DNA of 40,662 nt from a virus (IMGVR_UViG_3300028599_000003); one strand, 5' to 3'; counted from the first letter of the stretch, positions 11,438-35,978 are shown. Translations and numbers: made by a program. The notes: generated by a model not told the origin, from the letters alone.

Positions 11438-11496
11438 TTTTTAGTACTTTATTACACTATATAGATAATATACAAAAAATAACAGACAATATAAAA

Positions 11497-28947: not shown

Positions 28948-29177
28948 TACTTATTATGTTTACATTGAAACTGCCCAAGTCTAATAATATCTTTTTCTAA
29001 TGCTACAATTTTATCTTCCGACTCATTAATCATTTTGATTTTCTTTTCTAGCCTAGATTCTAGTACTACCATATCATCTGATAGTTGTGCTATCTGACTA
29101 TATGCAATACCCATAGTAAATATAATACCTATGATCCAAATTATATTACCGATATTTAGGGTTAAGTCTTTCATCAT
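28947..29177 (-). CDS. Single-TM coiled-coil membrane protein (holin/spanin-like candidate)
   Basis: IIWIIGIIFTMGIAY hydrophobic helix then heptad-rich segment. Confidence 0.55.
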   Translation of the reverse strand: MMKDLTLNIGNIIWIIGIIFTMGIAYSQIAQLSDDMVVLESRLEKKIKMINESEDKIVALEKDIIRLGQFQCKHNK

Positions 29178-29368
29178 TTCTTGGATTTGTATCCGCCTCC
29201 GTTAGCTTTATAACGTTTAGCAAGCATTTGAGCTTTACGTGCAGACCATTGTCCAGGAGCTCCACCTTTACTACCAGCCTTGATAGAATTAAATAATCTT
29301 TTACGCATTCCCGGTTTAGTATAATTACCCGATGCATTTACTGTACTCTTTTTCTTTTTGGTTGCCAT
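29174..29368 (-). CDS. Small very basic protein (N-terminal half of a DUF5872-like protein)
   Basis: 64 aa YTKPGMRKRL...GGAPGQWSARKAQMLAKRYKANGGGYK. Confidence 0.75.
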   Translation of the reverse strand: MATKKKKSTVNASGNYTKPGMRKRLFNSIKAGSKGGAPGQWSARKAQMLAKRYKANGGGYKSKK

Positions 29369-29373
29369 AATTC

Positions 29374-29697
29374 TTATGCTTCAAATGTTTCAGGGTATGA
29401 TTTATTCATTACATCCCTCAACTGTGCACACTTCTCATAGTCTTCTTCTTCTATGAAGTATGATATCATGTTTTTAAACTCTTCTTCCTTCGGTCCATTG
29501 TCTGGATCATAAGCCATCACTAATTCTCTTCCCTCACTAAATTGATTTGCCATCAATTCATCAAACGTGATCACACCAGTCAACAACATCCAGGCATTGT
29601 TGTAAGCAGTGTCAAGTATAATTGCGTCCATCTGCATCTGCTCCACCTCATTTAAACCACCTCCCTTGTCTTCATTATTGTCATCCCAGTTTGCCAT
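29374..29697 (-). CDS. Acidic protein with C-terminal UVR (UvrB/UvrC) motif
   Basis: FIEEEDYEKCAQLRDVM matches the UVR coiled-coil motif; first gene of the minus-strand block. Confidence 0.7.
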   Translation of the reverse strand: MANWDDNNEDKGGGLNEVEQMQMDAIILDTAYNNAWMLLTGVITFDELMANQFSEGRELVMAYDPDNGPKEEEFKNMISYFIEEEDYEKCAQLRDVMNKSYPETFEA

Positions 29698-29857
29698 AGT
29701 ATTTTATTTAGTGTGAAACCCTTCTATAAGAACAATATACTAAATTTCTAAATCCTATAAAAATTTTTAAGTAAGAACATGCCCCCGCCTACTGTTAAAT
29801 TGTCCTCCTGGCCCCCACAAAAGTTATGTGTTTGGCGTGCTTGAGAGGTATATATGA

Positions 29858-29872
29858 TCTGCTCCCCAACTA
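29858..29872 (+). repeat. Conserved box copy 1 (TCTGCTCCCCAACTA)
   Basis: 14/15 identical to copies at 30118 and 30720; GGCGTGCTT upstream shared with copy 3. Confidence 0.8.
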
Positions 29873-29897
29873 AATTTTGCGGTGAGGGTACCCCCTA

Positions 29898-30097
29898 TGC
29901 TTAGGTAGGAACTCTAACTGCACTTGCTAAATGCAAACAACTTGTGCTAAAAAAAAGAAAGTACGGGTATGTATGCATAGCAAAGCTGAGTAGTGTACTA
30001 CTACTTTGTCTACGTCAGGTATCTACTGAATATCAATACATCATTGAATTGTTTGTATTCATCAGTAGTATATATATGATGGACAGAGTATCAGTAC
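29898..30097 (+). ncRNA. Candidate structured non-coding RNA (three-way junction plus long rod)
   Basis: Nested stems with G.U pairs, e.g. ACTTGTGCT/AGTACGGGT, TACTTTGTC/GACAGAGTA, CTACTGA/TCAGTAG. Confidence 0.45.
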
Positions 30098-30100
30098 TAA

Positions 30101-30132
30101 AGGCATTTTTCAATGCCTCTGCTCCCAAACTA
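30101..30132 (+). promoter_or_regulatory. Hairpin (TTTC loop) plus conserved box, copy 2; candidate early promoter
   Basis: AGGCATT-TTTC-AATGCC-TCTGCTCCCAAACTA. Confidence 0.6.
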
Positions 30133-30215
30133 TAATTAGCGGGATAAGCCGTTTAACCTTTTCAGTAATAGCCTTATCACTATTATAATCAAATTAATAT
30201 TTAAATAATTACATT

Positions 30216-30677
30216 ATGAACAATTTAGTAACAGTACGCAAGAATGAAGACGGAACATTTATCTCTAAGACTAAGAACAATGACATAGGATTTGTCATCT
30301 ATGAGCAAAAGGCCGTTGAACTTAGAAATGGCTGGTATGCAGATAAATCTTTGTCAGCATTAGTATTAGGACCAATAGCTCTGCTTGAGTCTATGGACCA
30401 TTCTAAACCATTAACCGGTAAGATTATTGTGCGTGAGCAACTTGAACCATTCAATGAGAAAGACCTAACATACAAATTAAAGTATGCTGGTGACTCTGGA
30501 ATAGTATGTATGCAAGGAGATAGTGCTATTTATAGAACTACTGAGTTTACTGCTGACCTTAATGCTCAGTCTACGTTTATTCAGCACACTAATAGTGCTG
30601 AGATACGTGAGGCTAACAACTCTACTGTAGCTGTAGAGAGCTTGAATGCGTTTAAGCAGGAAACTGTAGAAGCGTAA
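30216..30677 (+). CDS. Early protein, tail-less paralog of 34230-34817 (putative ssDNA-binding fold)
   Basis: Aligns end-to-end with the core of 34230-34817 (GKII..E.LEPF, LKYAGD.GI.C, IYR.TE.T, HTN...IR.AN). Confidence 0.7.
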   Translation: MNNLVTVRKNEDGTFISKTKNNDIGFVIYEQKAVELRNGWYADKSLSALVLGPIALLESMDHSKPLTGKIIVREQLEPFNEKDLTYKLKYAGDSGIVCMQGDSAIYRTTEFTADLNAQSTFIQHTNSAEIREANNSTVAVESLNAFKQETVEA

Positions 30678-30700
30678 TTGTAACATAGTAGCTTGTGGGT

Positions 30701-30734
30701 AGGCGTGCTTTTCAGCACGTCTGCTCCCAAACTA
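30701..30734 (+). promoter_or_regulatory. Hairpin (TTTC loop) plus conserved box, copy 3; candidate early promoter
   Basis: AGGCGTGCT-TTTC-AGCACG-TCTGCTCCCAAACTA. Confidence 0.6.
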
Positions 30735-30735
30735 T

Positions 30736-31261
30736 GATATGTATGGGAATATAGTAGTAATAGTATGGAATGTTACTAAAAACAAACCTAACTTACTAAC
30801 TATTGTTACATAGAGACAAAAACAATCAATTAAGTTATAAATACTGTGGTTATTTTATTTTATTTGGGTGTGTCTCTTTCAATGGGAGGTCATATACCCA
30901 CAAAATACCACCTTTTACCACTCTTATAACTATCACTGTTACTAATAATATAAATATAGCTAACGTTACTACAAGAGTAACTATTACGCACAACAATACA
31001 ACAAGGGTAGTCTTTGTCTCTTCCTCTATAGGATAAGAGTCATATTACCCGCAATATCAAAACAGGCACATAGACAAATACCTGTATAAACATGGTTGGT
31101 CTCATCCAGTAAGCTGCTGGCGTAAGAGAGAACTTACAGTAATCTAAACTCATTACATAGATTAAGTGTAGTAAGACAAAATAAAGATCAAGACGTTGGT
31201 CATCCTACTGTCACATAGATGACAGCTTGTTAATGCTTTGTCAGCAGGGAAGCTACACTTA
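30736..31261 (+). ncRNA. Candidate long structured non-coding RNA or leader
   Basis: No credible ORF over about 620 nt; nested long-range stems (see findings). Confidence 0.4.
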
Positions 31262-31299
31262 TATCTATATTATTAATAATCCTTAGAACCTAAACCATT

Positions 31300-31647
31300 A
31301 TGCAAATCAAATCAGAATCCAAGTTACCAAACACTGTATTAACTATAAGGTTAAATACAGCAAAAGAAATGTTTGACTTCCATGAAGTTACACATAGCCA
31401 CTCAGAGTATGAAACTAAATGGGATGAGTTGAACGAAAAGTTACATGAGTATAAAAGTGTAGATATTCTTTCACATGTATTCATTCAGTATCTACCATTA
31501 GATGAGCAACCCAAGAATGGAGACTTGATATGTACAATACATTTGTGGTGTGAGGATTTTGAAAAACTAAGTTATCTTGAGTCAGAGATAACTAAAAGAA
31601 TATCATCAGTATTAACAGTTACATGGCCTTGGGAAAGGTGTAACTAA
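31300..31647 (+). CDS. Hypothetical early protein
   Basis: 115 aa, ATG with A-rich leader. Confidence 0.7.
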   Translation: MQIKSESKLPNTVLTIRLNTAKEMFDFHEVTHSHSEYETKWDELNEKLHEYKSVDILSHVFIQYLPLDEQPKNGDLICTIHLWCEDFEKLSYLESEITKRISSVLTVTWPWERCN

Positions 31648-34229: not shown

Positions 34230-34817
34230 ATGCAAAATCAAGTAGAAGTCCTAGCGGATGACATGGGAAATGTTGTGCGCTTAAGTAAGAACAACCCAGA
34301 GTATTCTTTCATTAGATTGGGTTACAAAAGTGTATCAATTGGTAAAGGAGGTTGGTTAAGAGAAAAGAATCTTACCACTCTTATCATGGGTACAACAGAG
34401 AATCTAACCTCTTATGCTAAAAATTTAGGTAAAACATTACCTGGTAAAATCATAGCAATTGAGTCATTAGAGCCATTCAGTAATACAAATCCAGATAGAG
34501 ACCTAAAATATGCAGGTGACACTGGTATTATTTGCTGTCAAGACGGACAACCTATTTATAGGAAAACAGAATATACTTATGATCAAGAAGCACAAGATAT
34601 TCTAGTAGAGCACACCAATGGTGATGCTATCCGTGCTGCTAATTCAGAAGCTTTTGAAGGTAGCAGTAAGTCTACCATTAAAGCAGGAACAACGGCTGAA
34701 GCTTTTGGTCTAAAAACAGAAGATACTACTGATGAAGTAGTTGAAGATGATATAGATGAAGTAGAAGACACAGTTGAAGAAGAAGTTTTAGAAGAAGAAG
34801 AAACTTTTGAACTGTAA
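34230..34817 (+). CDS. Putative single-stranded DNA-binding protein
   Basis: Beta-rich core plus long acidic tail ending ...EEEETFEL, the usual SSB architecture; own terminator. Confidence 0.55.
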   Translation: MQNQVEVLADDMGNVVRLSKNNPEYSFIRLGYKSVSIGKGGWLREKNLTTLIMGTTENLTSYAKNLGKTLPGKIIAIESLEPFSNTNPDRDLKYAGDTGIICCQDGQPIYRKTEYTYDQEAQDILVEHTNGDAIRAANSEAFEGSSKSTIKAGTTAEAFGLKTEDTTDEVVEDDIDEVEDTVEEEVLEEEETFEL

Positions 34818-35721: not shown

Positions 35722-35798
35722 GGTCCTATAGCTCAACTGGATAGAGCAACAGCCTTCTAAGCTGTAGGTTCTAGGTTCAAATCCTAGTGGGATCACCA
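35722..35798 (+). tRNA. trnR: tRNA-Arg(UCU)
   Basis: Cloverleaf GGTCCTA/TGGGATC, anticodon arm ACAGC-CT TCT AA-GCTGT, GGTTCAAATCC, encoded CCA. Confidence 0.95.
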
Positions 35799-35887
35799 GG
35801 CCGGATGATGGAATTGGTAGACATGACAGACTTAAAATCTGTTGAACTGGATAGTTCGTGTGGGTTCAAGTCCCACTCCGGCTACCA
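35799..35887 (+). tRNA. trnL: tRNA-Leu(UAA)
   Basis: GGCCGGA/TCCGGCT, ACAGA-CT TAA AA-TCTGT, long variable arm, encoded CCA. Confidence 0.95.
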
Positions 35888-35961
35888 GGACTCTTAGCTC
35901 AGTTGGTTAGAGCAAATCACTCATAATGATTAGGTCATAGGTTCAAGTCCTATAGGGTCCA
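35888..35961 (+). tRNA. tRNA with CAU anticodon, probably Ile2 (lysidine) rather than Met
   Basis: GGACTCT/AGGGTCC, AATCA-CT CAT AA-TGATT; body resembles bacterial tRNA-Ile2; ends A-CC-T (CCA incomplete). Confidence 0.85.
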
Positions 35962-35978
35962 CCTTTAAAAATAATTTT

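Follow-up and report, generated by a model that had tools for sequence, protein, structure and literature searches.

A deeply conserved, strand-specific box that opens the rightward module in uncultured marine crAss-like phages: a candidate virion RNA polymerase promoter

Introduction

The crAss-like phages count with the most abundant viruses known and, to our knowledge, all carry a giant virion RNA polymerase (RNAP). A search of the literature returned neither a report of the motif described here nor any start-site map for Crassvirales.

In phage phi14:2, the virion RNAP gp66, which prefers single-stranded templates, transcribes the early genes together with long early non-coding RNAs close to where the early region begins, and no common motif was found upstream of the early 5' ends (10.1101/2020.03.07.982082). 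In the early promoters of coliphage N4, the template strand forms a hairpin whose stem has 5-7 bp and whose purine-containing loop of 3 nt is centred at -11, with transcription beginning 8 nt past -8. The N4 virion RNAP (vRNAP) makes specific contacts at -11, -10, -8, and +1 and requires the host SSB, and at the promoters P1-P3 the hairpin is the promoter itself, being present at all three sites (PMC4496689). The related two-barrel enzymes of phage P23-45 (the vRNAP gp96 and the nvRNAP gp64) use conserved linear motifs located within -30 to +1 (10.1101/2022.12.01.518664).

The locus considered here lies in a viral sequence of 40,662 nucleotides (IMGVR_UViG_3300028599_000003), hereafter called the window. 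The original prediction, made from that sequence alone, interpreted a repeated box with adjoining hairpins just past a strand switch as an N4-like hairpin promoter for a crAss-type virion RNAP. Below, the box and the hairpin are followed through the relatives of this phage and compared with the systems named above.

The phage lineage and its giant RNA polymerase

The leftward block of the window codes for a terminase, a portal protein, a major capsid protein of the Crass_capsid type, and collagen-like tail fibres. Compared with its counterparts in Leptolyngbya phage Lbo-JY46, in the Cellulophaga phages phi17:2 and phi4:1, and in a crAss-like phage from the gut, the capsid protein shows 23-28% identity. 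A divergent gene on the minus strand (29374-29697) encodes a 107-aa protein that served as the marker for homologous strand-switch regions. This marker protein has no match in 50,697 GenBank phage records and the clade is therefore uncultured; it consists of uncultured marine crAss-like phages.

Six near-complete genomes of 110-116 kb were available for the comparison of box and RNAP, namely a complete, collinear relative of 114,219 bp (G002) with about 78-95% nucleotide identity to the window, and five others that are 96-100% complete. G002 has an open reading frame of 4607 aa with the sequence ADFDIDK, which contains the DFDID motif. The 551-aa core that surrounds this sequence has matches to annotated catalytic subunits of crAss RNAPs in 106 phage records (E down to 2e-13), and no Pfam or PHROGs family was assigned to the whole 4607-aa frame, for which the PDB sequence search was also empty. 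The same RNAP domain occurs in all five other near-complete relatives, with open frames of 3410-4755 aa across the six genomes. The RNAP gene was read in relatives at about 78-95% nucleotide identity and outside the span of the window, which weighs somewhat against the promoter reading. The lack of a vRNAP gene, which would have refuted the original prediction, is not observed. A crAss-type giant RNAP of the two-barrel class, a candidate reader of the box, is encoded by the lineage.

The box copies and their hairpins at the strand switch

The box, TCTGCTCCC(A/C)AACTA (15 nt), occurs exactly three times in the 40.6-kb window at up to two mismatches, always on the plus strand. Its expected count in the window is 0.11, and none of 100 shuffles attained three copies. 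The reported trio on the plus strand after the strand switch is confirmed, with no further member. A looser search of the window with the core of the box yielded no further credible copies. The leftward open reading frames end at 29697 and the rightward ones begin at 30216; the box copies lie just past this strand switch and follow each other at irregular spacings of 260 and 602 nt.

Copy 1 (TCTGCTCCCCAACTA; 29858-29872, plus strand) is the universal copy, present in every clade. It is part of a composite element (29820-29900, plus strand) that was delineated from the alignment and logo of 36 diverse sequences. In it, the conserved block AAAAGTTnTGTGTTTGGCRTGCTTRAGAGGT.CTA precedes the box, which is followed by six AT-rich nt as a spacer, by the invariant G at 29879, and by a conserved mini-hairpin, GGG...CCCC(C). 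As originally described, copy 1 lacks the preceding hairpin, none being predicted on either strand, and GGCGTGCTT is common to copies 1 and 3.

Copy 2 (30118-30132, plus strand) is abutted by the hairpin GGCATT-TTTC-AATGCC (30102-30117, plus strand). Its invariant G at 30139, at the foot of a stem-loop (30138-30153), lies 77 nt before the ATG at 30216, with which a 153-aa gene (30216-30677, plus strand; a paralogue of 34230-34817) begins between copies 2 and 3. Copy 3 (30720-30734, plus strand) is likewise abutted by a hairpin, CGTGCT-TTTC-AGCACG (30704-30719, plus strand), and has its invariant G at 30741, after which a gene-free block of 565 nt follows. Both 6-bp hairpins with TTTC loops agree with the original reading, and no other perfect hairpin in the window combines a TTYC loop with a stem of 6 bp or more. 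On the top strand, the hairpin at copy 3 can be extended to an imperfect hairpin of about 22 bp (30685-30736) that engulfs the box.

Conservation of the box across relatives

Relatives of the 107-aa marker protein, down to 31% identity, retrieved 116 loci from viral contigs. In 96 distinct homologous upstream regions, a relaxed box pattern gave 151 matches on the early-gene strand and none on the reverse strand, counts that overstate the number of independent events as the relatives share ancestry. The distance between copy 1 and the start of the marker gene is nearly fixed (132-189 nt) in the relatives with a detected box, and in most clades copy 1 stands directly before the first rightward gene, 59-68 nt from its ATG. 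G002 carries exactly three boxes in 114 kb and none elsewhere in its genome; the five further near-complete genomes have two to three boxes each, in a single cluster and on a single strand.

In the alignment of copy 1 in 36 diverse sequences, the invariant columns are TG.TCCCC in the box, the G that follows the box at +7, and, further downstream, a stretch of CCCC. TG.TCCCC remains invariant in these 36 sequences while the adjacent marker protein falls to 31% identity. The same alignment contains a conserved block of about 45 nt upstream of copy 1, which exceeds what a simple promoter would need and in this respect counts against reading the site as a promoter.

The box was not found in the genome of phi14:2, its early region included. 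As the only crAss-like phage that has been studied experimentally, phi14:2 counts against a promoter reading in that it has neither a common early motif nor the box. A scan of 185,579 species genomes for the box gave scattered single matches at chance level in unrelated taxa, from which no host clade emerged. The box is thus the core of a deeply conserved element that is directional, intergenic, and confined to the head of the rightward module.

Covariation and limits of the hairpin

The hairpin is confined to the subclade of the window (marker protein roughly at least 48% identical), in which copies 2 and 3 always bear one. Five stems are found there (GGCATT, TGCATT, CGTGCT, the 7-bp CGTGCAT, and GCCTGT), with a loop of TTTC or TTCC, a closing T-A pair, and a distance of 0-1 nt to the box as constants. 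In an alignment of 21 elements, 91% of the cells are paired, and both partners have changed in five of the six pairs. Covariation scores 0.64, compared to 0.26 in shuffles (0.64 being attained by 0 of 500) and to no more than 0.11 with slid partners, although the number of independent covariation events behind it is small, copies 2 and 3 being paralogous and the genomes related. Searches with the combined hairpin and box pattern revealed no new stem variants in viral contigs and, among the matches listed, only chance matches in metagenomes.

In distant clades, an unstructured CT-rich tract (MFE -2 to -10 kcal/mol across 105 nt) takes the place of the hairpin before the boxes other than copy 1, and the CT-rich tracts of the hairpin-less clades carry the half-box YTGCTC 22-25 nt upstream. 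The suggestion that structure and spacing rather than sequence are conserved therefore holds for the nearer relatives, where compensatory changes are seen, but not for the distant clades, which are hairpin-less and in which the box is the constant part. The same applies to the conservation of the hairpin with its spacing, which is found in the subclade of the window and is absent beyond it, whereas the box persists. The hairpin is not part of the universal element and is most likely a lineage-specific upstream accessory, as judged from its distribution among the sequences.

The constancy of its loop and spacing argues for a joint action of hairpin and box and against a free-standing terminator. 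A general terminator was ruled out as TTYC-loop hairpins occur in the window only at the boxes, the spacing is fixed, and no substitute hairpin is found within 90 nt in the hairpin-less clades.

On the template strand, the loop of the hairpin reads GAAA or GGAA, and one stem variant has G.T there and C.A on the top strand. The two strands hardly differ in the predicted stability of the DNA hairpin, which is modest (-6 to -8 kcal/mol). The extended hairpin at copy 3, in which the box can be buried, uses top-strand G.U pairs; selection thus acts on at least part of a read-through RNA structure at this copy, a point against the promoter reading. Between subclades, position 10 of the box varies in concert with its upstream partner.

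A shared unit of box, spacer, and G

Position profiles were made separately for copy 1, the hairpin-bearing copies, and the hairpin-less copies. All classes have in common the 15-nt box, five weakly conserved AT-rich bases, a T at +6, and a G at +7, the last being present in 96-100% of the sites and often followed by C. In the sites other than copy 1, the information drops to about zero right after the G at +7, as expected at a transcription start.

RNA folds were predicted from single sequences for the 55 nt after the box in 97 distinct elements. The first predicted helix begins at +6/+7 in 46% of these elements, versus about 13% in shuffled or offset controls. The covariation of stems in the leaders was read by eye and from these folds: the stems beginning at the invariant G vary and yet pair (GCATA/TATGC, GCACA/TGTGC, GAGTA/TACTC, GTGG/CCAC, GAGG/CCTC, GGCG/CGCC), and the downstream hairpins share no common loop or length. 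A conserved block followed by an AT-rich stretch and a G with a terminal stem-loop looks like the layout of a linear, sequence-specific phage-RNAP promoter (-21 to +1). As in promoters of that kind, the block is oriented and conserved, is present in few copies, and lies only upstream of transcription units.

Genes and other motifs around the boxes

The 153-aa, 195-aa, 107-aa, and other early proteins were not assigned to any Pfam or PHROGs family. The 153-aa protein weakly resembles OB-fold proteins of the SSB/PriB type (Foldseek E 0.1-0.6; VIA Z about 4 to PriB/SSB). A TATATT-type promoter-like site precedes the 107-aa gene near 29740 on the minus strand.

The recurrent sense-strand upstream motif of the phage is TGTATATTAT, a general, promoter-like motif that was not found on the plus strand between the strand switch and box copy 3. 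The motif TAnnTTTG, which had been described as present at genes further downstream and missing at the boxes, is not enriched in the window (62 found versus 60.6 expected), so that its absence at the boxes says little. A conserved promoter-like site of the TATATTAT type is located on the minus strand at about 30952.

The block downstream of the last box is conserved in all clades and contains three TACC(C)AC repeats with a period of 10-11 bp, AT-rich runs, and a site that is found in either orientation (GAGGTC or GACCTC). The cumulative GC-skew has its minimum at 29-30 kb. Neither the copy-1 leader nor, on either strand, the conserved block that follows the last box yielded a consensus structure with RNAalifold, and Rfam returned only three tRNAs at gathering score in the window and nothing at E up to 1 in 29600-31400. 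Genome termini were considered as an explanation for contig ends and were ruled out, as the contig ends near the strand switch form no sharp hotspot.

The box as a candidate early promoter

The conservation, directionality, copy number, and covariation observed at these sites, together with the co-occurrence of the RNAP gene, lead us to infer a promoter function, a +1 position, and a polymerase identity. With moderate confidence, we propose that the box is a sequence-specific promoter read by the virion RNAP of the phage and that the hairpin is a clade-specific accessory of it. A promoter at the boxes is favoured because the rightward genes need one there and yet the plus strand has no TGTATATTAT upstream of copies 1-3. 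The box would then be the recognition core of a strand-specific class of promoters that is used only two to three times per genome and is placed at the head of the rightward (early/replication) module. In the proposed anatomy, the box would span about -21 to -7 and the AT-rich spacer about -6 to -2, followed by T at -1, G at +1, and often C at +2. The placement of +1 at the invariant G is suggested by conservation and by the boundaries of the predicted RNA folds.

Many copies would accordingly give a transcript that starts with a 5'-terminal stem-loop. Copy 1 is predicted to produce a structured non-coding RNA of about 240 nt, copy 2 to serve the 153-aa gene, and copy 3 to transcribe the long non-coding block. 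The reader would most likely be the phage's own giant crAss-type virion RNAP, injected along with the DNA. At copies 2 and 3, the hairpin with its TTYC loop (-37 to -22) may act as a lineage-specific upstream accessory, the place of which would be occupied in other clades by the CT-rich tract with the half-box YTGCTC.

A speculative extension, to which we attach only a slight probability, is that this is the first consensus promoter for a crAss-type virion RNAP that needs a locally unwound template. Clade-specific non-B-DNA devices directly before the box would supply the unwinding (an extrudable inverted repeat in one clade and a long polypyrimidine/polypurine tract with half-box in the others), and transcripts from the last box would enter the iteron-bearing AT-rich block and there activate or prime the replication origin, as the tandem promoters of T7 do at the primary origin of that phage.

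Alternative explanations

That the box acts on the RNA level, as a boxA-like site on the rightward transcripts (bound by NusB/NusE-type or phage factors) accompanied by boxB-like hairpins and serving antitermination, processing, or stability rather than a start, is unlikely in our view but is the strongest of the alternatives and has several observations in its favour. From its position 3 onward, the box reads TGCTCCCCAACTA and is identical in 9 of 13 positions to the rrn boxA (TGCTCTTTAACAA), with TTT replaced by CCC. The order of elements is boxB-boxA in rrn and boxA-boxB in lambda nut; here, a variable hairpin lies directly upstream of the box as in the former, and a further hairpin lies 6 nt downstream as in the latter. 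Upstream half-boxes such as CTGCTCTTGAAC in the hairpin-less clades, as well as the G.U pairs and the covarying box position 10 at copy 3, would also suit an RNA site. The resemblance to boxA and the flanking hairpins, as known from rrn/nut antitermination sites, count against the promoter reading. For nut or rrn sites, however, three copies within 900 nt of one operon would be unusual. The downstream hairpins have neither loop nor length in common, and a search for TGTATATTAT-type sites found no recognisable promoter upstream of copy 1 from which such a transcript could start, although the conserved block of about 45 nt lies there. The rrn leaders and spacers examined, those of Flavobacteriaceae and Chitinophagaceae, carry a GTTCATTGACA-type boxA and not the box, and the scattered single matches among the 185,579 species genomes, in unrelated taxa, likewise argue against an RNA site. 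Mimicry of the boxA of a Bacteroidota host was considered and is not supported by the rrn leaders of these two families, which have a different boxA. The promoter-like anatomy would fit equally well if the box were read by the host RNAP with an alternative or phage-supplied specificity factor, the sequence by itself being neutral as to the enzyme. The box ends in TA followed by AT-rich bases and is thus loosely -10-like, copy 2 even reading CTATAAT. We nevertheless regard a host-read promoter as quite unlikely, since the best-conserved part of the box (GCTCCCC) would sit in the spacer of a sigma-70 or Bacteroidota -33/-7 layout, copies 2 and 3 have no consistent -35 or -33 partner, the element is unlike the general TGTATATTAT motif of the phage, and the specificity factor would be required before any phage gene is expressed.

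A strict N4-type promoter would make the template-strand hairpin (loop GAAA or GGAA), extruded by supercoiling, essential, and would place the start about 11 nt from the loop centre and hence inside the box, at the G of TCTG. The covarying stems of 6-7 bp with their fixed loop, closing T-A pair, and spacing would be consistent with this, as would the template-strand loops, both of the G..A type, the stem variant with C.A on the top and G.T on the template strand, a copy number of three like that of N4, and the preference of the phi14:2 vRNAP for single-stranded templates. Such a promoter is nonetheless very unlikely here. Copy 1, the only copy found in every clade, is hairpin-less on both strands, and whole clades hold the box with unstructured DNA upstream. 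The loop has 4 nt instead of 3, the stability of the DNA hairpin is modest and equal between the strands, the invariant T-G at +6/+7 and the RNA stems beginning there would be left unexplained, and the enzyme belongs to a class other than that of N4. Of the original proposal of an N4-like vRNAP hairpin promoter, the promoter reading therefore stands in part, as the element is directional, intergenic, and conserved, whereas its N4-like side gives way before copy 1, the 4-nt loop, the hairpin position of about -30 relative to the proposed start, and the enzyme class. Least probable, indeed very unlikely, is that the boxes are a DNA element of an origin, flanking an ori-like non-coding block, or a site of the leftward strand, in which case the TATATTAT-type site (about 30952, minus strand) would send transcripts through the boxes and the hairpin would present a GNRA loop as in boxB. 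That site itself, the conserved block after the last box with its TACC(C)AC repeats, AT-rich runs, and GAGGTC/GACCTC flip, and the position of the GC-skew minimum would agree with such a role. The boxes, however, are irregularly spaced and asymmetric, unlike iterons, copy 1 stands directly and at short distance before the first rightward gene in most clades, and the antisense reading yields no known linear motif and is followed by nothing terminator-like.

If the box is indeed a promoter of the virion RNAP, the box, spacer, and G would together provide a sharply defined 22-nt candidate for recognition by a crAss-type virion RNAP. The clade supplies natural variants of the box, versions with and without the hairpin, and matched polymerase genes from complete genomes; a recombinant polymerase module and synthetic templates would therefore suffice to address the question in vitro, with no need to culture the phage. 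In genomes of this marine phage group, the box also offers an easy way to locate where the early region begins.

Comparison with known systems

With N4, the locus shares a cluster of three directional sites where the early region begins and a giant packaged RNAP, the gene for which was here read in relatives, as well as short covarying inverted repeats with a purine-rich loop on the template strand and a polymerase family that prefers single-stranded templates. Unlike in N4, it is the linear box that is constant, and the hairpin is missing from copy 1 and from whole clades. The loop has 4 nt, the centre of the hairpin lies about 30 nt upstream of the proposed start compared to -11 in N4, and the N4 vRNAP is a T7-like single-subunit enzyme whereas the one considered here is of the two-barrel crAss type. 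The element may thus work partly like an N4 promoter, through an upstream accessory of DNA structure, and yet stand outside that family.

As in phi14:2, a giant protein with DFDID is encoded, and a small early unit at the start of the module is accompanied by long non-coding regions, which in phi14:2 are highly transcribed early. The box is absent from the early region of phi14:2, however, and the similarity of its capsid protein and RNAP to those of the present clade is only distant. With the rrn boxB-boxA and lambda nut sites, the element shares a pyrimidine-rich TGCTC-YYY-AAC beside variable hairpins, strand specificity, and a leader or intergenic position in a long operon. It differs from them by CCC in the box instead of the UUU of boxA, by three sites in 900 nt, by non-uniform downstream hairpins, by the lack of a recognisable upstream promoter, and by the absence of the box from the rrn leaders that were examined.

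The linear promoters of the T7 class and of P23-45 resemble the element in having a conserved block of at least 15 nt upstream of the start (here the proposed one), an AT-rich stretch just before +1, few copies, and a strict orientation; the proposed initiation with G is as in T7, and gp96 and gp64 are members of the two-barrel family to which the crAss vRNAP belongs. The sequences themselves are unrelated to those of P23-45, the C-rich TGCTCCCC contrasting with the AT-rich motif of gp96 and the GC-rich motif of gp64. Unlike the linear promoters of phage RNAPs, the box is further combined with an upstream accessory, either the hairpin or the CT-rich tract with its half-box, that has no described counterpart among them.

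Non-coding elements around the boxes

Downstream of the last box (copy 3) lies a conserved non-coding block (30850-30965), which has a counterpart in the L128-L244 loci and is conserved in all clades. The block includes an AT-rich run and three TACC(C)AC repeats (30895, 30906, and 30916) with a period of 10-11 bp, while at one site GAGGTC and GACCTC replace each other, the orientation flipping between relatives. Invariant in the block is ATAGCTAAC, which is embedded in ATATAAATATAGCTAAC. The cumulative GC-skew reaches its minimum at 29-30 kb of the window. In appearance, the block is closer to an origin or operator region acting at the DNA level than to an RNA.

No gene occupies the interval that separates copy 1 of the box from copy 2 (29873-30100); this interval folds much more strongly than shuffled sequence (z -5.1) and has a core of 80 nt that is invariant among close relatives. 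The distance from copy 1 to copy 2 is constant across relatives (239-260 nt). In most other clades, the gene-free arrangement is replaced by one in which a 109-aa gene (MVYFRKLN...) starts 59-68 nt after copy 1. The relative L232 (IMGVR_UViG_3300039180_001060) carries two boxes just 63 nt apart, whose distances to the marker gene (the 107-aa gene at the strand switch) are 180 and 243 nt, and each is followed by N6-G, a sequence pattern consistent with tandem starts.

Neighboring genes and a giant RNAP-type ORF

The products of 30216-30677 (+), the first rightward gene, and 34230-34817 are paralogues (38% identity, E 7e-31), the latter bearing a long acidic tail. The C-terminal motif AVESL.AF.QETV recurs in the otherwise unrelated first gene of locus L178. 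For the predicted structure of the 30216-30677 protein (pLDDT 80.7), the OB folds of PriB, SSB, and MCM top the list of matches; the model-based designation "SSB-like" is nevertheless unproven because the Foldseek E-values are just 0.1-0.6 and the VIA Z is about 4.

The gene at 29174-29368 (-) encodes a 64-aa basic protein (phrog_17747) and shows 70-75% nucleotide identity to genes of SAR11, Roseobacter, SAR116, and Methylophilales phages. It is a promiscuous small gene common to the window phage and phages of marine Proteobacteria, which may have a bearing on the host question. Three tRNA genes (Arg-TCT, Leu-TAA, and Met/Ile-CAT) are arranged head to tail without spacer at 35722-35963.

In the complete relative G002, a 4607-aa ORF (57108-70931, minus strand; L124:108-13931) contains the crAss-type RNAP motif ADFDIDK at residue ~3620 and belongs to a series of giant leftward ORFs (1925, 1152, 987, 919, 2028, and 2095 aa). 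Sequence searches of Pfam, PHROG, and PDB with the full-length protein gave no match.

A promoter-like motif

TGTATATTAT is enriched on the sense strand upstream of many genes in the window and G002, for example at 11474 (-), 18091 (-), 29740 (-), 31266 (+), and 33877 (+). One copy is located at 30952 (-), within the non-coding block 3' of box copy 3. TGTATATT occurs seven times in sense and never in antisense orientation, with 0.4 expected. TGTATATTAT is promoter-like and resembles an extended -10 element.
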